The notes: generated by a model not told the origin, from the letters alone. DNA of 38,873 nucleotides from a virus (IMGVR_UViG_2734482567_000007), one strand, 5' to 3'. Positions 1 to 38,873 are shown, counted from the stretch's first letter. Made by a program: numbers and translations.

Positions 1-83
1 TGATGGCAAAGTGTTCCTTACACAGGCGCAGCTGGCGATGCTGCTGGAAGGTATCGACTGGCGACATATAACCAGGTGAATCA

Positions 84-9568: not shown

Positions 9569-9572
9569 CCCC

Positions 9573-9638: not shown

Positions 9639-10061
9639 ATGGCTGAAACACAGATGAGCATGTTTGGTGACAGCGAACAGCTGCACGCGCTGATTGACCG
9701 TCTGGATGATATTCCTGATGATGAGCTGAAAAAGAACTGGCCCGGCACGCTGCGGGACCTGGTTGATGTGATCAGTGCTGAACTGCACCGTCAGGGGATT
9801 GAACCTGCTCAGGCGGGAATGCTTGCCCGTAAGGTTGCAGCCGCACAGGCCGGGTACATGGGCGGGCGTGGTTATTATCTCCCGGTCGGTGAATCCCTTT
9901 TCACCGAACTGCGCAATAATGAAATTTTTTCCCGCTGGAGCCAGGGCGAAAAAATTGAAACCCTGCGCCGCCACTACCAGATGTCAGAGACGCAGATTTA
10001 CTCCGTTATCCGCAACCAGCGTCGCCTGCATCAGGAACGCACGCAGCCACGGCTTTTCTGA
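9639..10061 (+). CDS. Mor/C-family transcriptional activator (middle/late gene activator)
   Basis: 140 aa; GGAGG RBS; position between early terminator and lysis genes; C-terminal HTH-like region typical of Mor/C family. Confidence 0.65.
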   Translation: MAETQMSMFGDSEQLHALIDRLDDIPDDELKKNWPGTLRDLVDVISAELHRQGIEPAQAGMLARKVAAAQAGYMGGRGYYLPVGESLFTELRNNEIFSRWSQGEKIETLRRHYQMSETQIYSVIRNQRRLHQERTQPRLF

Positions 10062-10132
10062 TATTCCGCAAATCCTGCCCCCTTTTCCTCACGGTTACGC
10101 TGACTCAGAGAACACCATGAGACAGCGTAACA

Positions 10133-18117: not shown

Positions 18118-18294
18118 TGGTTTAAGGTATGCAAACGTATTACCTTACCCCCTTCAGGCGCGTGTCGTGATTTTCTAACCTGTATTTAACGGGCTTTAAA
18201 ATCTGCGTGAAGCGCCTTTCTCATTCCCCCCCTGTCAGCACTTTCTGAAGTCCCGCAAAACCAGCCCCAAAAATACCCGGCTTATGCTGCCGGT
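18118..18294 (+). promoter_or_regulatory. G-I intergenic region: candidate late promoter and, by synteny, candidate centrally located strong gyrase site
   Basis: 177-bp noncoding region at the genome centre between G and I homologues; contains CCCCC/CCCCCCC runs also seen upstream of the endolysin gene. Confidence 0.35.
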
Positions 18295-31708: not shown

Positions 31709-32153
31709 TGTTTCATGTTGATAATAATTCCGGCGTGGCGAATATGCCTGCGCTGGCACCGGCGCAGAGTAATACCACCACCTGGTTTACCGAAGGTGAC
31801 GGACAAAAAGGTATCAGCTGGATTGGTCAGGACTGGCTGAATATTCTCCAGGCCGAACTGCTGAATATTCTGGCTGAAGCCAGTATTCAGCCGGATAAGG
31901 CGCAGTTAAACCAGCTTACGCTGTCCATTAAAGCCATTATCGCTGCGAATGCCTTTTCCCGGAAAAATAACCTGAAAGAAATTGCTGATGCCGGTGCGGA
32001 GGCCCAGCGTCTGGCCCGTGGTTATCTTGGTCTGGGGACGCTTGCCACAAAAAACAGTCTTGGTCCCGCTGACGTTAATGCCCTGGCGAAGGATCAGAAT
32101 CTCGCCGACCTGGAGAATAAGGGAACCGCCCGTAATAATCTGGATGTTTACAG
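31708..32153 (+). CDS. Tail-fibre protein, N-terminal constant part (3' truncated by N gap)
   Basis: ORF runs into the N run; N-terminus typical of Mu/P2-type fibre anchor region. Confidence 0.65.
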
Positions 32154-32403
32154 NNNNNNNNNNNNNNNNNNNNNNNNNNNNNNNNNNNNNNNNNNNNNNN
32201 NNNNNNNNNNNNNNNNNNNNNNNNNNNNNNNNNNNNNNNNNNNNNNNNNNNNNNNNNNNNNNNNNNNNNNNNNNNNNNNNNNNNNNNNNNNNNNNNNNNN
32301 NNNNNNNNNNNNNNNNNNNNNNNNNNNNNNNNNNNNNNNNNNNNNNNNNNNNNNNNNNNNNNNNNNNNNNNNNNNNNNNNNNNNNNNNNNNNNNNNNNNN
32401 NNN
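32154..32403. other. Assembly gap (250 N)
   Basis: Uninterrupted run of N. Confidence 0.99.
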
Positions 32404-32427
32404 GGCTGTCTATAGCGCGGCGATTTT

Positions 32428-32493
32428 TTTGATACCGATTTGCATTTCATTTGATACCGCTGAAAAACGCCGATACGCAACTTATTTGATACT
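32428..32493 (+). repeat. Right-end transposase-binding-type repeats (TTTGATACCG at 32428-32437 and 32450-32459, TTTGATACT at 32485-32493)
   Basis: Same motif as at left end, immediately downstream of mom stop on the minus strand and abutting the N gap. Confidence 0.6.
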
Positions 32494-32538
32494 AAATCGG
32501 CGCTTTTCTTTTGAGTTTTAGAATGAGTTTTTAAGCGT

Positions 32539-33276
32539 TCATTCACTCTCTTTCAAACCAGTTTTAACTGTTTGTGGTTTTGGGTAAGGCTGGACTTTGA
32601 ATAGCTTTGTGTTAAGGCGTTTTCTGGCTCTCTTGTCCAGAAACCGGATGTAACGAAACTGACGGAATTTATGAACACTGGCTCTGTCGATATTAGCCCG
32701 CAGATGTTCACCTCGCTGTCCTCCTCGTTTGATTGCATTCTTGCAAATCTCGTGATACCACTCGCCATCAAGTTCATAGAATGTTGTTTCATGACTGCCT
32801 ACATAATCAAAATTGCTTGCCTGGTACACGACACCAAGACAGCCACAACGCTCATCTGCAAACGACTGAACCCACTGCACCTGCGGATAAAGTTGTCTGA
32901 TTAGTTTGAGCGCGTAACTGATTGCCCTTGATTCGGAGTTTCTCGGCATACAGTCATGCAGCCATAACCGGTTAAGCTCCATATATTCGCGGTTCTGCGT
33001 GCCAGTTACGACGCGTGCACCATTGTTTGGATTAAGGGCATAACCCCATTGCATTACGCCAACCAGCTCCCGTTCTGAAAATATGCCCAGATGAAGGTAG
33101 GAATTATTTACGAAACGATGGCTGTAATGTTTATTGACGACGACCAGCCGGGCCAGCCAGCAACTTATTGTCTCAACCCGTAACTCACGGGAGCCATAAC
33201 CGACGATATTGTCGTTATAGTGAATAAGTTCAGGCGTGCTGATGATACGGGATGTAACTTGCTTTCTGTTCCCCAC
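32539..33276 (-). CDS. mom: Mom-like DNA modification protein; start inferred as GTG at 33276 inside 3' end of com
   Basis: Last gene before the phage end, immediately downstream of and overlapping a Com-like zinc-finger gene; mom frame has no ATG near com stop; GTG at 33276 preceded by AAGGA (9-nt spacing). Confidence 0.55.
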
Positions 33277-33430
33277 GACAGGATTTCCTTGTGTATGTGG
33301 GGTGCTCTGTGGCGCTCTGAGATGTGATTTGATTGAGGGTTTTACAGCGCGGACATTTAACTTCCAGATAACTGAAGCTGGCTCGTGCCAGTAGCTTGTT
33401 ACAATGTCGGCACCGTATGTTTCGATACAT
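33230..33430 (-). CDS. com: Com-like zinc-finger translational activator of mom
   Basis: 66 aa from ATG 33430 (GGAGG upstream); CRHCNKLL...CPRCK zinc-finger resembling Mu Com; overlaps mom start. Confidence 0.7.
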
Positions 33431-33570
33431 GGCCGCATAACCTCCTGCTTTGTTGTTGATATCTTTATCACTCAATCGATCGACAAAAACGATCGATTTG
33501 ATTTATTTAATTGATACAACAAATAACACGAAATGTCATTAGCGAAAATTTATGAGTTTGATCACTAATT
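33431..33570 (-). promoter_or_regulatory. com-mom upstream regulatory region with clustered GATC sites
   Basis: GATC at 33478-33481 and 33491-33494, each within a CGATCG palindrome, and a third at 33560-33563, in an AT-rich region upstream of com. Confidence 0.45.
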
Positions 33571-33686
33571 TTAAACGGTGCTGTAACGCATAAGTGCTGA
33601 ATGATTGTACATTTGAATACCGCAAAGCAAACAAATCAACTAATTTATAGAAGTCAATTGGTTAATTGCCAGCGTAAGAGGCTGCT

Positions 33687-33980
33687 ATGGACAATCATGT
33701 AACGACGAGAAATCGAAAAATGATTGAAAATGCGGAAATCTATAATGATTATTTTTCCGATTATTCAGATGCCTGCAAATACAGTTCGAGTGCGGGAGAG
33801 TTCATATGCTTCAACTTTTTTATTAAATCTTATGTTTTTCCTCCACAGCAAGAAGATGGAGGTGTGCCACCTCCTGAAATCACTTTGCACCGTATAGCCT
33901 CCGTCTCAATGATGGAGCAACAGGCTAATGAGCTGTATAGCATTCTGGGAACGATTCTACAAAAGCGTGAATCGGACTAA
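33687..33980 (+). CDS. Hypothetical AT-rich protein, divergent from com-mom
   Basis: 97 aa; RBS TAAGAGG 5 nt before ATG; markedly AT-rich relative to phage core. Confidence 0.45.
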   Translation: MDNHVTTRNRKMIENAEIYNDYFSDYSDACKYSSSAGEFICFNFFIKSYVFPPQQEDGGVPPPEITLHRIASVSMMEQQANELYSILGTILQKRESD

Positions 33981-34062
33981 TGATACCGGTTCATTTGCCT
34001 GCCCGGATGGGGAAGCAGGATTGACTGCTCCATAAGCAGCTATATTTCTGAATACGAAATAC

Positions 34063-34142
34063 TATCCAGCGATTACATATGGCTGGATAGCGGCAAAGAT
34101 GTTTTCATTAGTGTCAAACCGGCAGAGGACACCACCGGTTTG
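34063..34142. other. Two palindromic elements between convergent genes (TATCCAGC/GCTGGATA and CAAACCGG/CCGGTTTG)
   Basis: Perfect 8-bp inverted repeats at 34063-34089 and 34115-34142; the second ends 5 bp before the stop of the 84-aa gene. Confidence 0.35.
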
Positions 34143-34147
34143 TATTG

Positions 34148-34402
34148 TTACATCATGGTACTGTCAGTTCCGGGCTGAGCCGGGTCTGGTTGCTCTGGCT
34201 GCGCGTCGGTTTTCGGCTCATTATCAGCATCACTGGCCGCAACTGCTGGCCCAATAAGTTTTGCCAGCACTTCATCAACGTAAGTGTCGATTTGTGCCTC
34301 AAAATCCTTGCGGACCTGCGCTTTCAGCAACTTATTTACTTCACCGGAATACAGTGCCTGTTTTACCAGGTCTTCAGTGACGGTGCCTTTAATTTCTGGC
34401 AT
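34148..34402 (-). CDS. Hypothetical acidic protein
   Basis: 84 aa; strong RBS AGGAGG 6 nt before ATG; Asp/Glu/Pro-rich C-terminus. Confidence 0.5.
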   Translation of the reverse strand: MPEIKGTVTEDLVKQALYSGEVNKLLKAQVRKDFEAQIDTYVDEVLAKLIGPAVAASDADNEPKTDAQPEQPDPAQPGTDSTMM

Positions 34403-34437
34403 GTATATCCTCCTTATGCGGGAATAAAGCCCTGCAA

Positions 34438-34620
34438 TCAGGGCTGGGTCGGGTCTTTTGGGAGCGGAGTTACCTGCGCTGTTTTACTGAGTTTTTCAGC
34501 TGCTGCGTCCTCAATTTTGCGGCGAACATAATTTCTGATGGCCTTATAACCACCACTCACCAGATATAACGCACATACTGCCGTGCAGAAATACAATAAA
34601 ATAAGCTGTAAAAATGTCAT
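34438..34620 (-). CDS. 60-aa single-transmembrane peptide (candidate small membrane toxin or lysis/exclusion peptide)
   Basis: ATG at 34620 preceded by GGGAGGG; N-terminal hydrophobic helix MTFLQLILLYFCTAVCALYLVSGGY followed by basic/charged tail. Confidence 0.45.
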   Translation of the reverse strand: MTFLQLILLYFCTAVCALYLVSGGYKAIRNYVRRKIEDAAAEKLSKTAQVTPLPKDPTQP

Positions 34621-34635
34621 TATCCCTCCCAATTA

Positions 34636-34758
34636 TTGACATGGTGTTGACACCGGTAATATCTGTTAGGTAAAAAGGTGCACTGCATTTTTTGCTTTGG
34701 ATATAACGATCTTTTTGCCGCCGGTTTCTTGTTTTCCCTTACCGGCGGCATTTTTTTA
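34636..34758 (+). ncRNA. Candidate small RNA transcription unit antisense to the leader of the 60-aa peptide gene
   Basis: TTGACA (34636-34641), 15-bp spacer, TAATAT (34657-34662), then intrinsic terminator GCCGCCGGT...ACCGGCGGC + TTTTTTT (34717-34757); no plus-strand protein gene to serve. Confidence 0.35.
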
Positions 34759-34764
34759 TCCTGC

Positions 34765-36819
34765 TTACGCGTTATTCACTTCCACCACGATACTGTCAAT
34801 CAGTACCGGGTAAGTCGCATTTTTAGTGATATCGGTCACGCGCAACTTGTCTGCCGTAAACGTGCCGACCGGAGACTGCGACAGCATGAATGGTGTCCCG
34901 TCCTTACCATCAATGACCGGCGTCACCTCAATACTGTTGTTACCGGCAAAACGGAAGCCCAGCGTATGCCATTCGTTATTAAATGCGCCGAATGACCCCA
35001 GCTTCGTGTTCTGCGCCGTGTTTCCTTTGTGATACATCACGTTAAGGTCTGTGGCATCGCTCTGTACGTAGAACGATGCCAGCAGGTTATGACCGGCATT
35101 TCCTTCCAGAGTAACCCCTTGCGGCAGGGCAGAAACCGGCCAGTACAGCGCCAGTGCGTACTGATTAGCCGTAAGCGCGCCATCGAGTTTAAAACGACAA
35201 CTGACAAGACCACCTTTACCCAGCAGGTCCGCACCATTACCAGCATCATGCTCAAGGTACCAGGGGGCTCTTCCTGTTTCCTTGGTCAGTTTCATTGCCT
35301 TACCCCCGCTGGCTCCGGCATCATCCACGATTTGAGCCTTGCCACCTCCGGCAGCCCAACCCTGTGGTGTCAACCGTCCTTCAGACTCAGATGCCCGGTA
35401 AGCAAATAGCGTACTCATCGTCGTGGTGTCTGCGGGTGGCGTGGACGGTTTTGATGGTGTATCAGGTGACGGCTTCTCATCCGGTGGTGTCACGGTCTGC
35501 CCACGCATCAGTTCAGCCGTGCGCCCTGCATGGAGCATAATAGCTGAGGCCAGACGGTCTGAAATGACGCCCCTGCGTGCCCATGAGCTGAAATGGCTGT
35601 CACGCTGTGTCGAAACAAAACTGCCCTGGGTTCGGGATGCTGCACCGTAATACCCGACAGCCACAATATCCGGGTCTTCCGCCGGAGCATTCGTTGGCGT
35701 GCTCTGTCCATTCTCATCCGTCAGGAACGGTACAAAGAAAATTTTCTGTGCTTCCTTGCCTTTGTAGCCACCGTATACTGCCTCATATTTATCGGTGCCA
35801 GCGTTTTTCCAGTAATACGTGGTATCACCGCAAATCCACGGCACCGTGGTGGCATTTCCACTCACGCACTGCGCAGCAAGCGGAGCCAGGTCAGTTCTGA
35901 ACTGCTGAACCATGGCCGTGAATAAACTATTATGCTGCTGGCTTCCTGAGGCAAGGTCTGCCTCTCCCTGCATCCAGACCACAGCCAGAAGTTTGTTTTT
36001 CGGGTTTTTCGCCAGCGCGACTTTGGTGCGGCTTACCAGGTCCTGATACAGAGGTTTACCGGCCCCCCAGCGTGAAGAATCAGCGGAAGCACCGCTGGCC
36101 TCACTGAATGAGCCGTCGGCTCCAGTGGTGAATGCTGACCCGCCACGACAACAGGGCACCAGAAGTATCCCGGCATTCTGTGGGATATAGGGAAGCAGTT
36201 TTTTGGCAATATGCAACCCCTGACCGACAGTCCCGTACTGGCCTTTTGCCAGATCAGCTTTCGGGTGGTTTATCCCGCTCATATCCTGAACATCATGCAG
36301 GCAGTGGTCTGCCGGAATGATGTCGTTGTATGTACACGACGTACCGTTGGGCGTTACCGTACTGCGGCGTGCCAGTTGCTTAATGCGTGGGTCCGGGCGG
36401 TCAAACGAATCCGGTAACGGCAGCCCCTCGCCGTAGGCCATGCCATTTGACTGACCCGCGAGAATGACAACAAAGTAATATTCCGGCTCTGAACTGCTGC
36501 CATTCGTGCTACCGGAAGGCCCGGCGTTATCCGGTGCATTCCAGTCGGAGGGCGTGAGCGTTCCGGCCACGTCAGATGTGATTGGAATGATGCCAGTCAC
36601 GCCTGAACTGGTGATTTCTGCACTGGGATTACCGGATACCGGCATTACCCATAATGGCTCTTTCGTGCTGAAGCGGATCACGCAGTCTGCGAAGGTGATC
36701 CCCCCTTTATTACCCGAAGGGCGGAAAGGGCTTTCAATAAATGCCACCGTGCCACCGGCAACCTTGACTGAAAACTCTCCGGGCATGGCGGAGAGCATTT
36801 TCCACTTGGAGTCTGACAT
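34765..36819 (-). CDS. SGNH/sialate-O-acetylesterase-like carbohydrate esterase with C-terminal lectin-like domain (NanS-p-like)
   Basis: 684 aa; YYFVVILAGQSNGMAYGEG esterase motif; Pro/Ser/Thr-rich linker; C-terminal beta-rich domain; inserted between gin and com. Confidence 0.5.
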   Translation of the reverse strand: MSDSKWKMLSAMPGEFSVKVAGGTVAFIESPFRPSGNKGGITFADCVIRFSTKEPLWVMPVSGNPSAEITSSGVTGIIPITSDVAGTLTPSDWNAPDNAGPSGSTNGSSSEPEYYFVVILAGQSNGMAYGEGLPLPDSFDRPDPRIKQLARRSTVTPNGTSCTYNDIIPADHCLHDVQDMSGINHPKADLAKGQYGTVGQGLHIAKKLLPYIPQNAGILLVPCCRGGSAFTTGADGSFSEASGASADSSRWGAGKPLYQDLVSRTKVALAKNPKNKLLAVVWMQGEADLASGSQQHNSLFTAMVQQFRTDLAPLAAQCVSGNATTVPWICGDTTYYWKNAGTDKYEAVYGGYKGKEAQKIFFVPFLTDENGQSTPTNAPAEDPDIVAVGYYGAASRTQGSFVSTQRDSHFSSWARRGVISDRLASAIMLHAGRTAELMRGQTVTPPDEKPSPDTPSKPSTPPADTTTMSTLFAYRASESEGRLTPQGWAAGGGKAQIVDDAGASGGKAMKLTKETGRAPWYLEHDAGNGADLLGKGGLVSCRFKLDGALTANQYALALYWPVSALPQGVTLEGNAGHNLLASFYVQSDATDLNVMYHKGNTAQNTKLGSFGAFNNEWHTLGFRFAGNNSIEVTPVIDGKDGTPFMLSQSPVGTFTADKLRVTDITKNATYPVLIDSIVVEVNNA

Positions 36820-36904
36820 CGTCTTTTCTGCCTGTTTCTGAATTAAACAGAGTCAGAATAGCGACCGCTGAAAAATATGTGTTTTGCGGAAATTCAAAAA
36901 AGCG

Positions 36905-37477
36905 TCACGGTACTTTTGGTGACGGAGCTGGTGAGGCAGGAAAATAACGATAAAGGGTGGAAAGGCCAATATCAAATATCAGTGCGATTTGTTTACGGGA
37001 CTCGCCATTAGCCAGCAAACGGGCGATTTGCTCCCGCTCTTTCTCTGTCAGTTTCTGAGGTCTGCCGCCATGACGCCCCTGAGCACGGGCAGCAGCAAGA
37101 CCCGCGCGTGTACGTTCAATAATGAGTTCCCGCTCCATTTCCGCCAGCGCGCCCATTATATGGAAAAAGAAACGTCCCATGGGAGTGGATGTATCAATAT
37201 TGTCCGTAATGCTGCGGAAGTTAACGCCGCGTTGCCGGAGTTCTTCTGTTAAAAGGACAAGGTGCTGCATACTGCGTCCAAGGCGATCCAGTTTCCAGAC
37301 CAGCAGGGTATCCCCTGGCCGGAGTCGCTTTAATGCGCGTTTAAGTCCGGGACGCTCCCTTGTCTTACCGCTTATTCTGTCTTCGAAAAACAGCTCACAT
37401 CCTGCACATTCCAGCGCATTTCTTTGTAGCGCCGTATTCTGGTCATTTGTTGACACCCTGATATACCCAATCAGCAT
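36905..37477 (-). CDS. gin: Gin/Hin/Pin/Cin-family serine DNA invertase
   Basis: 190 aa; near-identical N-terminus to Mu Gin (MLIGYIRVSTNDQNT...GDTLLVWKLDRLGRSM...GRFFFHIMGALAEMERELIIERT); adjacent to gix site. Confidence 0.9.
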   Translation of the reverse strand: MLIGYIRVSTNDQNTALQRNALECAGCELFFEDRISGKTRERPGLKRALKRLRPGDTLLVWKLDRLGRSMQHLVLLTEELRQRGVNFRSITDNIDTSTPMGRFFFHIMGALAEMERELIIERTRAGLAAARAQGRHGGRPQKLTEKEREQIARLLANGESRKQIALIFDIGLSTLYRYFPASPAPSPKVP

Positions 37478-37523
37478 ACGATTTCCTTATTATAAAAAGC
37501 CGGAATTGTCGCATGAGGAATAA

Positions 37524-37907
37524 AACAGAGTTAATCCTGGCTTTCCTGAAAACCTCGGTTTACGGGAAACGGTAAACAGGGCGGCGAATGCCCTGCCATC
37601 GGACGGCACCGCCGTTGCCGCGAACAGGCTGGCAAATGCCCACACAATTAATGGTGTTCCCTTTGACGGGACGCAGGATATCACTATCTCATCAGGAACA
37701 GTAACCGCCATAAGACTGGGGTCGGTGACCGCACATATGCCCGGAACATGGGAAAGCTGGGATCTGAATCTGGGGGGCGGCAATGTTCTTACCGGAATTA
37801 AAGTACAGGATGTCGGTAAGAATACGGCAGATAACGTCGGCGGCGTGTATTACCGGCCGTTGCAGTATCTGTTAAATGGAGCATGGGTGACGGCTGCAAG
37901 TATATAA
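37524..37907 (+). CDS. Alternative tail-fibre C-terminal cassette (no start codon; expressed only after inversion)
   Basis: Open frame from IR into variable region ending at 37907; shares ...NGVPFDGTQDI with the minus-strand cassette and then diverges. Confidence 0.55.
   Translation, partial: NRVNPGFPENLGLRETVNRAANALPSDGTAVAANRLANAHTINGVPFDGTQDITISSGTVTAIRLGSVTAHMPGTWESWDLNLGGGNVLTGIKVQDVGKNTADNVGGVYYRPLQYLLNGAWVTAASI
37543..37568. other. gix-type inversion crossover site (left)
   Basis: TTCCTGAAAACCTCGGTTTACGGGAA, matching the Mu gix/hix core AAAACCTCGGTTTAC with imperfect dyad symmetry; 65 bp from gin start. Confidence 0.7.
37555..37624 (+). repeat. Left inverted repeat of invertible segment
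   Basis: 70 bp with one mismatch to the reverse complement of 38804-38873; encodes the shared fibre segment ...RAANALPSDGTAVAAN... Confidence 0.8.
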
Positions 37908-37938
37908 TGATATTCAGAAGGCCTTCCGGCCTTCTTTA

Positions 37939-38460
37939 TTACTGTGGCTGCTCAGGCCATTTAATGGCGTTAAATTCAGCTTCTGTTTTAATGGCGGGTA
38001 GTTCCATTTTCTTCACCTGACTGATGTATGCCATCCATTGGGTAAGTGCTGCTCTGTCTTCATCGCTGATGGTGCCCAGTTGTAGCTCCGTTCTCCAGTC
38101 ATTAATTTTTTCATATGCCTGATTAAGATATGACTGGCGCATTGCTTCCAGTTTTCTTGCGTAGTTAACCGGAATACGGGAGATTATGCCATTATCAAAC
38201 TTCCAGTTTCCTGAAATATCCGTGCCTTCAGGGAGTTCATCGACCTCAACCACAGAAAACCCCGCAGGATACAGCGCCGAGGCGTCCTGTGATATTGAGC
38301 AGATAACGCCGCTGTCAGGTGTTATGCAAAGTTTATATTTTTTGGTGAATAATGGCAGGGATTCGTAGAAATCCTTACCATCTTCACTCTGGAAATACTG
38401 AACATTATTACCATATGGCATATTTTCAGGATAATAACGGGTTATATTTTTTAGTTCCAT
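37939..38460 (-). CDS. Tail-fibre assembly (chaperone) protein, U/Tfa family
   Basis: 173 aa; GGAGG RBS; immediately downstream of minus-strand fibre cassette; typical Tfa C-terminal region. Confidence 0.75.
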   Translation of the reverse strand: MELKNITRYYPENMPYGNNVQYFQSEDGKDFYESLPLFTKKYKLCITPDSGVICSISQDASALYPAGFSVVEVDELPEGTDISGNWKFDNGIISRIPVNYARKLEAMRQSYLNQAYEKINDWRTELQLGTISDEDRAALTQWMAYISQVKKMELPAIKTEAEFNAIKWPEQPQ

Positions 38461-38511
38461 AAAATCCTCCTGGAAATAAATCTGTTTTAAAATATATTAT
38501 TTACTGACTAT

Positions 38512-38873
38512 TTATAACTGAGATACCGTAATCCATGTACCTCCGACTAATTTTTGCAGGGGTCTGAATGCTATAAAATCGTTTGAAGCATCAACTTTAC
38601 TGTCAATCTGCAGGCCTGCCATAACATTACCGTACGCAGAGTAATATGCCCCACCGTACATTACCTGCCTGTTCTCTGCTCCCAGCCTGATATCCTGGAT
38701 ATATCGGGAATCCGCATCCTGCTGTGTTATACCAGAAGTGATGTTTATGTCCTGCGTCCCGTCAAAGGGAACCCCATTAATATTTCTTGGGGTGGCGAGT
38801 CTATTCGCGGCAACGGCGGTGCCGTCCGATGGCAGAGCATTCGCCGCCCTGTTTACCGTTTCCCGTAAACCGA
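38512..38873 (-). CDS. Tail-fibre variable C-terminal cassette (5' truncated at window edge / gix site)
   Basis: Open frame from window end to TAA at 38512-38514; begins with IR-encoded ...NRAANALPSDGTAVAAN then variable region; followed by assembly gene. Confidence 0.6.
   Translation of the reverse strand, partial: GLRETVNRAANALPSDGTAVAANRLATPRNINGVPFDGTQDINITSGITQQDADSRYIQDIRLGAENRQVMYGGAYYSAYGNVMAGLQIDSKVDASNDFIAFRPLQKLVGGTWITVSQL
38804..38873 (-). repeat. Right inverted repeat of invertible segment, ending in right gix half-site (38860-38873)
   Basis: Reverse complement matches 37555-37624; TTCCCGTAAACC + GA at the very end of the window is the right half and centre of a gix site. Confidence 0.8.

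Follow-up and report, generated by a model that had tools for sequence, protein, structure and literature searches.

The closest described relatives of the locus reported here are the com–mom operons of phage Mu and of D108 and SfMu, in which com and mom likewise follow gin as the final pair of genes at the right end. Adenine modification by Mom depends on Gly-tRNA(Gly) (PMC13219725). Translation of Mu mom involves two RNA structures: Mu Com binds a 19-mer hairpin, GAAUGCCUGCGAGCAUCCC, with the motif CC(N)2-3GAG, just 5' of an inhibitory stem, and it is in this stem that the GUG of mom sits (PMC6483171). Upstream of com, Mu carries a DNA element that is an established target of Dam and OxyR, according to the work cited in PMC3378877 (Bolker and Kahmann 1989; Hattman and Sun 1997). 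The arrangement is not confined to Mu itself. Sp18 and comparable Mu-like prophages have genes for Mom and its regulators at the mom position, and in FluMu (HI1522.1/HI1523), Pnm1 and phage B3 a methyltransferase gene follows a Com homologue together with putative Com-binding elements (PMC3299994).

Here we analysed a stretch of viral DNA of 38,873 nucleotides (IMGVR_UViG_2734482567_000007), called the window below; all positions are counted from its first letter. Judging from sequence homology, it very probably contains the com–mom operon of a Mu-like transposable E. coli prophage on the minus strand. Both genes and all of the RNA elements associated with them lie on that strand.

Com, Mom and the right end of the phage

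The genes and the phage end are made up of the following features.

33230–33430, minus strand: com, encoding a 66-aa zinc-ribbon protein, the predicted translational activator (Pfam, PHROG, PGAP).
33441–33446, minus strand: Shine-Dalgarno sequence of com, AGGAGG, 10 nt before the com ATG (from the sequence).
32539–33276, minus strand: mom, encoding a predicted tRNA(Gly)-dependent adenine-modifying enzyme of 245 aa (Pfam, PHROG, identity to Mu, PDB).
32407–32530, minus strand: right end of the transposable phage, with TTTGATAC(C) repeats and a terminal TG/CA (match ends and sequence).

The original prediction for this locus was a com–mom module with a 245-aa downstream product, which was to be aligned to Mu Mom. 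The alignment leaves little to argue about. The product is 78% identical to Mu Mom over residues 5–233 and is a bona fide Mom, an adenine-modifying enzyme with GNAT fold. It is encoded from a GTG (33276–33274) to a TGA (32541–32539), and it matches the Pfam family Mom (PF25680) with an E-value of 1.6e-77 (260 bits, cut-off 27.1), the PHROG 'Mom-like' with 2.8e-83 and the crystal structure of Mu Mom (PDB 8bv8) with 2.4e-123. Nine residues are essential or important for Mu Mom (PMC13219725), and all nine are conserved: W48, H58, Y59, R111, S124, D149, R151, Y159 and W181 in the numbering of the 241-aa Mu protein. In a 99.8%-identical prophage, PGAP names the gene 'tRNA(Gly)-dependent adenine aminoacyltransferase Mom', also with 245 aa and a GTG start. 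By analogy with the experiments on Mu, we would expect Mom to carry out its chemistry in the DNA of this phage.

The com frame starts with ATG and encodes a zinc-finger signature, CxxC...CxxC, that ends in ...CPRCK; the cysteines are Cys7, Cys10, Cys26 and Cys29. Its product is 45% identical to Mu Com and matches Pfam PF10122 Zn_ribbon_Com (1.3e-12; 47.4 bits, cut-off 22.9) as well as the PHROGs 'translational regulator' and 'gpCom' (about 1e-13). PGAP annotates an identical 66-aa com ORF in the 99.8%-identical prophage, and the AGGAGG in front of com is kept in the relatives L085–L087 and L091. A PDB sequence search with Com gave no match. The NCBIfam HMMs matched neither Com nor Mom, and the RefSeq names of the two proteins evidently come from other types of rule.

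The prediction also had a Com-like zinc-finger ORF overlapping the last gene before the phage end, and this is what we find. A stretch of 47 nt is common to the two genes and is read in different frames, both products have their Pfam matches, and the operon is the final one ahead of the right end of the transposable phage at about 32407. The position of the end comes from E. coli genomes with differing flanking genes, in which the match to the window stops at 32404–32411; the TTTGATAC repeats occupy 32420–32500. In full, the 99.8%-identical prophage comprises Mu-like genes for head, tail, lysis and Mor/C, followed by gin and a tail-fibre segment that is invertible. Its PGAP gene order is gin ... 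com-mom-phage end, and a disrupted host gene follows directly after mom. Among 5426 complete E. coli genomes, 233 carry the module with at least 90% identity, at varied insertion sites. A tRNA scan of the window found none; PGAP marks a 'tRNA-OTHER' in one relative.

The GATC pair and the region upstream of com

Control of transcription has to be sought upstream of com, where the features are these, together with one activator gene further away.

33474–33498, no strand assigned: inverted repeat AATCGATCG-N7-CGATCGATT with two Dam sites (flanks and spacing as in Mu, conservation).
33560–33563, no strand assigned: third GATC, probably outside the control element (its DNA is missing from 93%-identical relatives).
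33431–33539, minus strand: upstream block with the presumed com–mom promoter (shared with about 93%-identical relatives).
9639–10061, plus strand: gene for a 140-aa homologue of C, the late activator of Mu; the lysozyme gene begins shortly after it.

Three GATC sites are present as originally listed: a pair at 33478–33481 and 33491–33494, 13 bp apart and each within CGATCG, and a third site 69 bp beyond the one at 33491. They are the only ones between 32092 and 34708, in a window with 117 GATC in total (149 expected). CGATCG occurs four times in the whole window, against about 10.7 expected, and two of the four form this pair; we estimate the chance that two of four would fall within 13 bp of each other at about 0.004.

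The pair matches AATCGATC-N9-GATCGATT of Mu both in its flanks and in the 13-bp spacing (we number the two Mu sites nearest to com II and III). It is conserved in L085–L087, L091, L088 and L004. Typical com–mom loci of Enterobacterales have GATC-N14-GATC-N9-GATC about 75–110 nt upstream of com, and the family of the window and Edwardsiella have the N9 pair alone, at a conserved position 47–50 nt from the com ATG. The third GATC has a different history. Matches in 218 records begin at query positions 162–176, which is 33539–33525 in the window, and the DNA upstream of 33539 is unrelated in most relatives, including the third GATC and a divergent ORF. The original idea, that the GATC cluster is reminiscent of the Dam-dependent control of Mu mom, can be kept for the CGATCG pair, with its match to Mu and its conservation in relatives; the third GATC, located in non-homologous DNA, does not support it. 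Since the pair matches the Dam/OxyR element of Mu and is conserved, it is reasonable to infer that it would put com–mom under Dam-sensitive control.

One could also argue that the pair has nothing to do with a Dam/OxyR switch. It might be the palindromic operator of some other regulator, possibly of the phage activator, or just a hairpin that acts on antisense transcripts. The sites do lie in an inverted repeat with 9-bp arms, and on the plus strand this repeat, with a T-rich run behind it, is scored as terminator-like. The OxyR consensus is matched at 13 of 20 positions in the window and in Mu alike, no better than in shuffles, and a separate activator site would not fit. We nevertheless consider such an operator or hairpin unlikely. 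Its Mu counterpart is the Dam/OxyR target established by the work cited in PMC3378877. Variation affects the flanks and the N9 spacer, but not the GATC cores or their 13-bp spacing, which are conserved. Clusters with the 18/13-bp spacing upstream of com are found in gammaproteobacterial loci only (Enterobacterales and Neptunomonas), the hosts of which would be expected to carry Dam. Loci outside the Gammaproteobacteria are without an 18/13-bp cluster; two GATC occur there in just three alphaproteobacterial loci, with other spacings and positions.

We regard the terminator-like call on the plus strand as a by-product of the palindrome. A scan for sigma-70 promoters on the minus strand upstream of com found no consensus. 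TAAAGAT (33467–33461; compare TAAGAT in Mu) was considered as the -10 and rejected: it is not conserved and reads GAAAGGC in 93%-identical relatives. At almost the offset of this TAAAGAT, a relative from Salmonella has TATACT.

The C homologue is 40% identical to Mu C (E-value 2e-37), belongs to the 'Mor transcription activator family' according to PGAP, and is a candidate trans-activator of com–mom transcription. Dependence on C, like control by Dam and OxyR, would be expected from the experiments on Mu. The presumed C box, CCGCAAAWCCWGCCCC, which we derived from the lys-like and I-like late promoters, is matched exactly at just two places, 10066 and 18253; it is absent upstream of com, and this region has no counterpart to the C-binding/T6 region of Mu. 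In Mu, too, Pmom upstream of the -10 is unlike the segment common to Plys and PI. The GATC pair of the window is 27 bp closer to com than the pair of Mu, and hence a Mu-like C site would not fit between the pair and a -10.

The start of mom and the RNA structures around it

Downstream of the promoter region, control would pass to the mRNA, where the following elements are found.

33302–33315, minus strand: predicted Com-binding hairpin GCGC[CACAGA]GCAC, with AGA before it (Mu homology, covariation).
33271–33302, minus strand: predicted translation-inhibition stem-loop (RNA fold, Mu homology, conservation).
33286–33290, minus strand: Shine-Dalgarno sequence of mom, AAGGA, partly paired with CCU(GU) at 33282–33278 (fold and sequence).
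33436–33438, minus strand: ATG in the mom frame, rejected as the start of mom (2 nt behind the com Shine-Dalgarno sequence; outside the Mom homology).

In the predicted fold, the GUG of mom is buried in the outer stem of a stem-loop, in which CCCCAC (33302–33297) pairs with GUGGGG (33276–33271). An inner helix, ACA(A)GG/CCUGU, covers the GG of the AAGGA. The free energy of the 45-nt fold is -12.6 kcal/mol, compared to -7.0 ± 2.1 for shuffled sequences (z -2.7), and 3 of 200 shuffles are as stable. The outer stem corresponds to CCCAC(GG)/(UU)GUGGG of Mu, and the stem-loop is predicted to be homologous to the translation-inhibition structure of Mu. The original prediction saw only a part of this, namely a small hairpin between AAGGA and the following TCCT. 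Pairing of the Shine-Dalgarno sequence is real and consists of GG/CC plus A-U, with two further pairs, but a 4-bp hairpin of AGGA and UCCU would leave a loop of 2 nt. In the MFE fold the GG of AAGGA pairs with the CC of UCCU, and the U is taken by the neighbouring A17 or A18, according to whether the MFE or the centroid structure is considered. The hairpin is merely the inner helix of a larger structure, and the outer stem that buries the GTG had been missed. The proposed echo of Mu is therefore stronger than it first seemed: homologues of both the Mu stem and the Mu Com hairpin are present.

The outer stem is conserved in L004, L006, L008, L018, L088 and L091 and is kept in Edwardsiella, other Enterobacterales and Salmonella relatives. 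In Parathalassolituus (L012) it is replaced by a compensatory UGCCA/UGGCA. Pairing of the inner AGG with CCU is retained in L088 and L091, which are closer relatives, although the loops differ. Across 46 loci, the start codon is paired in 39, compared to 28.8 expected from shuffles; the excess is only modest because the sequences are GC-rich. An Rfam scan of 32404–34200 yielded no family, the sole sub-threshold match being a chance match to IS102 (21 bits, gathering score 46).

The predicted Com-binding hairpin lies directly 5' of the stem-loop, and its last C is shared with the stem. Together the two read AGA-GCGC[CACAGA]GCAC-CCCAC (33318–33297) and are arranged as in Mu. The hairpin has the motif CC-N3-GAG and one C.A mismatch in its stem. 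For comparison we gathered 80 mom loci from diverse bacteria. A Com hairpin occurs within 130 nt upstream of mom in 48 of 51 loci with com, which come from diverse Proteobacteria, versus 8 of 31 mom loci without a detectable com. In our hairpin alignment (A2), three of the four stem pairs change on both sides, a count that is partly circular since the sequences had been selected for pairing. We therefore added a test that is anchored on the core GCC-N2-3-GAGC alone and escapes this circularity. Of 62 core-anchored instances upstream of mom, 54 have complementary bases at both outer stem pairs, versus 23 of 130 elsewhere in the same loci, and more than eight different combinations of outer pairs occur among the anchored instances. 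In the window, the unconstrained MFE fold does not include the full Com hairpin but a 2-bp version only.

Another trace of the RNA structures can be found in Com itself. The residues EHPT, common to the Com tails of the window and of Mu, are encoded exactly by the 3' arm of the hairpin and the 5' arm of the stem-loop, which suggests that a constraint at the RNA level shapes this part of Com.

From the experiments on Mu we would expect Com to bind this hairpin and to activate mom. Alternatively, mom might be unlocked mainly by translational coupling, that is by the ribosomes that translate com, with little or no role for Com binding. The com frame crosses hairpin and stem and terminates 47 nt past the GUG. 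Ribosomes that translate com thus have to melt the structure, and their passage could help to open the stem-loop independently of Com binding. As the main key to mom, coupling is improbable in our view. The loop motif CC-N2-3-GAG is conserved far past what coupling would need, and Com reportedly acts in trans on the mom mRNA of Mu. Moreover, Mu Com binds the homologous hairpin in vitro (PMC6483171).

Taken together, regulation by Com and by the Dam sites would work as follows. A weak promoter of the activator type, within about 110 nt upstream of com, would produce a single com–mom transcript, late and gated by methylation. The two Dam sites in AATCGATCG-N7-CGATCGATT would most likely tie transcription to the methylation state as at Pmom of Mu, which OxyR represses by binding to unmethylated sites. 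Com would be translated from its own AGGAGG and ATG. On the naked mRNA mom would be blocked, with the GUG in the 3' arm of the stem opposite CCCCAC and AAGGA partly paired inside the loop. Once the zinc ribbon of Com binds GCGC[CACAGA]GCAC, which abuts the stem, the stem would open and expose the Shine-Dalgarno sequence and the GUG. Mom would then take glycine from Gly-tRNA(Gly) and attach it to adenine N6 in the phage DNA, and the carbamoylmethyl-adenine formed would make this DNA resistant to restriction. This scheme builds on computational observations, namely the identities of the two proteins, the overlap with its GUG start, the fold, the conservation and covariation of the Com hairpin, and the conservation of the GATC pair.

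None of these steps would take place if the module were a decaying remnant of a defective prophage that has lost expression. Some relatives do contain IS insertions and pseudogenes, the right block of the window is inverted with respect to the left block, and the candidate -10 is poor and even worse in O157-type relatives. Still, decay is very hard to reconcile with two intact ORFs, with catalytic residues that are all kept and with conserved RNA elements. Presence at 90% identity or more in 233 genomes, at varied insertion sites, is typical of an active transposable phage. A functional module is the reading we prefer.

A GTG at 33276, with AAGGA 9 nt upstream, had been named as the best start of mom, and this choice is borne out: the AAGGA (33290–33286) ends 9 nt before the GTG, and PGAP uses the same start. 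It is also true that there is no in-frame ATG nearby. The sole upstream one is 162 nt away (33438–33436) and corresponds to M12 of a 310-aa mechanical ORF, and the next one downstream is about 74 codons inside Mom. The Pfam Mom match begins at residue 96 of the 310-aa ORF, and homology to Mu Mom begins at the GTG.

Another indicator of the start is a change of payload in L087 (E. coli DETEC-S792). In this locus the com, the hairpin, the stem and the GUG-GGG-AAC are those of the window, but what is fused to them is a C5 cytosine methyltransferase. Because the similarity to the window stops 3–4 codons past the GUG, the swap indicates that the regulated gene starts at this GUG. For Mu, the RefSeq entry extends mom to an upstream ATG. 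The Mu GUG (L001:858), 10 codons downstream of this ATG, gives a 231-aa protein, and Mu Mom tolerates the deletion of those 10 N-terminal residues (PMC13219725). Since the GUG start of Mu mom is likewise located within com and in the stem-loop, a non-ATG start inside com is the norm of the family and not an oddity.

A longer Mom of 299 aa, starting at the ATG at 33438 and making the com ORF an artefact of overlapping frames without any Com-dependent control, is scarcely credible: this ATG is in frame and just past a strong AGGAGG, but only 2 nt separate the two, neither the Pfam match nor the Mu homology begins before the GTG, the zinc ribbon read in the other frame is a significant Com match that is conserved across 51 loci, PGAP calls com together with a GTG-started mom, and the payload of L087 is swapped directly past the GTG.

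Comparison with known com systems

Two readings go beyond the operon itself, and we put them forward together as a tentative proposal that may well turn out to be wrong. The first concerns the promoter. In this lineage it may be a compressed version of Mu Pmom, in which a Dam-methylatable repeat overlaps the -35 and spacer region and a separate C site is missing. The methylation state, or the protein that reads it, may then gate RNA polymerase directly, perhaps without a late activator. The second concerns translation. The unit of com, hairpin, start-sequestering helix and first three codons may be a portable translational lock that is placed in front of varied DNA-modification payloads, such as Mom in the window and the C5 methyltransferase in L087. 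The RNA element of the Com lock is conserved from Enterobacterales to Desulfovibrio and Alphaproteobacteria, and it has no Rfam family. Many of those lineages have a hairpin and a start-sequestering helix that cannot form at the same time.

The value of the locus is that of a natural variant of the Mu system, with a longer stem-loop that includes explicit pairing of the Shine-Dalgarno sequence and with a shortened promoter. Together with the family-wide alignment of hairpins, this variant could help to define how Com recognizes its target and how the lock is opened. The prophages that carry the module probably have an adenine modification that evades restriction. In a type of prophage that is common in E. 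coli, we would find the textbook cascade of a Dam-sensitive promoter, a translation lock activated by Com and a toxic DNA-modifying enzyme.

As the literature and RefSeq already describe the com–mom module, and RefSeq annotates it in hundreds of genomes, our finding is the recognition of a known system. Mu-like E. coli prophages, including those of O157:H7 (Sp18 type, PMC3299994), carry the same module, annotated as Com family protein and Mom with identical starts. The com-methyltransferase modules likewise have a DNA-modification gene at the mom position, whereas the payload of the window is a true Mom.

The likeness to Mu extends to details. The overlap of com and mom is 47 nt in the window and 50 nt in Mu. 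In Mu, too, the GUG-GG at which mom starts belongs to the 3' arm of a stem, CCCAC/GUGGG (CCCACGG/UUGUGGG in full), a CC-N3-GAG Com hairpin lies directly 5' of this stem, and the AATCGATC-N9-GATCGATT pair of Dam sites is found upstream of com.

The differences from Mu lie within this common plan. The loop of the inhibitory stem-loop is 20 nt long, compared to 7–11 nt in Mu, and the structure has an additional helix between the Shine-Dalgarno sequence and its complement, as well as a sixth stem pair that shares a C with the Com hairpin. Unlike the Mu hairpin, the Com hairpin of the window and its family has a C.A mismatch. Two of the three GATC sites of Mu are present, the absent one being the site farthest from com, and the pair is 47 nt from the com ATG instead of 74 nt. 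About 3.4 kb of extra genes separate gin from com. Judged from the sequence, the longer inhibitory loop with its Shine-Dalgarno pairing, the two GATC sites and the compressed promoter are uncharacterised minor variations on the com–mom operon of Mu.

The com locus and its neighbours

One related prophage of the same family (L087; NZ_CP116067.1, 1910-3116) carries a different payload at com. In this prophage com, the Com hairpin, the inhibitory stem and the GUG-GGG-AAC at the start are all kept, and a C5 DNA cytosine methyltransferase stands in place of mom, with the junction lying 3-4 codons past the start.

On the other side of com, the window holds three cargo genes between gin and com (34148-36819, minus strand), which Mu lacks, and a divergent ORF.

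Genes flanking com in the window
within 34148-36819, minus strand: cargo protein of 684 aa with SASA sialate-O-acetylesterase-like and DUF6645 domains
within 34148-36819, minus strand: small cargo protein, DUF1378
within 34148-36819, minus strand: small cargo protein, DUF826
33687-33980 (PGAP start 33720), plus strand: orphan divergent ORF of 86-97 aa

Family searches with the orphan ORF returned no match. In the 93%-identical relatives, whose homology to the window breaks off at about 33539, an unrelated gene with a frameshift fills this slot.

A second member of the Com family, more distantly related, turns up in 144 E. coli records (e.g., NZ_CP027447.1, 1869855-1869980) and also in phage Chuche. 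It shares about 70% nucleotide identity across 130 nt of com, and no mom annotation underlies the match. The product name that PGAP gives to Com in RefSeq relatives, "Com family DNA-binding transcriptional regulator," is misleading; experimental studies present Com as an activator of translation that binds RNA (PMC6483171).

Assembly and ends of the window

The window contains a run of exactly 250 N (32154-32403). After it comes a block (32404-38873) that runs from the phage right end and mom through com, the cargo genes and gin to the G segment, in the opposite orientation to the left 32 kb. Intact relatives have the tail-fibre gene (its end is at 32153 in the window) joined to the G segment; in the window the G segment lies at the far end. 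The window terminus itself falls inside the gix inverted repeat, as a comparison of 37546-37600 with the reverse complement of 38740-38873 shows. The window looks like a scaffold in which one contig was flipped at the repeat of the invertible segment.

At the opposite end, the phage left end with its TTTGATACCG repeats seems to start near position 77. About the first 60 bases of the window (2-63) match part of an IS66-family element at 95%; the same region is annotated as tnpB in the comparison locus L083.

A candidate late-activator box

The motif CCGCAAAWCCWGCCCC occurs at 10066-10081 and at 18253-18268, upstream of the lysozyme gene and upstream of the head protease gene, with TTAYGCT coming 22 nt after it. 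The two elements are probably the binding box and the -10 of the phage's C-type late activator. Upstream of the C homologue, at 9569, there is a further copy with three mismatches.

RNA layouts at other mom loci

Not every mom gene comes with com. In an Enterobacteriaceae MAG (L003, 1930-2010) mom has no detectable com, and its UUG start sits inside a perfect 13-bp hairpin (AUCUGUUUUCUCAA...UUGAGAAAACAGA). The com gene is likewise missing from two Symbiopectobacterium loci (L007 and L009), where three GATC sites remain immediately upstream of mom.

At many com-mom loci (L019-L060; Desulfovibrio, Rhodospirillales and others) Com-type hairpins come as a tandem pair with a spacing of 22 nt. The proximal hairpin has a 5' half (e.g., GGCCAUGG) complementary to the start region (CCAUGGCC), and this pairing encloses a CCUCC/GGAGG helix. 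Because the same 5' half pairs with the start region, only one of the two structures, Com hairpin or start-sequestering helix, can exist at a time at these loci. In Mu the stems are adjacent, whereas the tandem-hairpin loci would have a switch-like layout.
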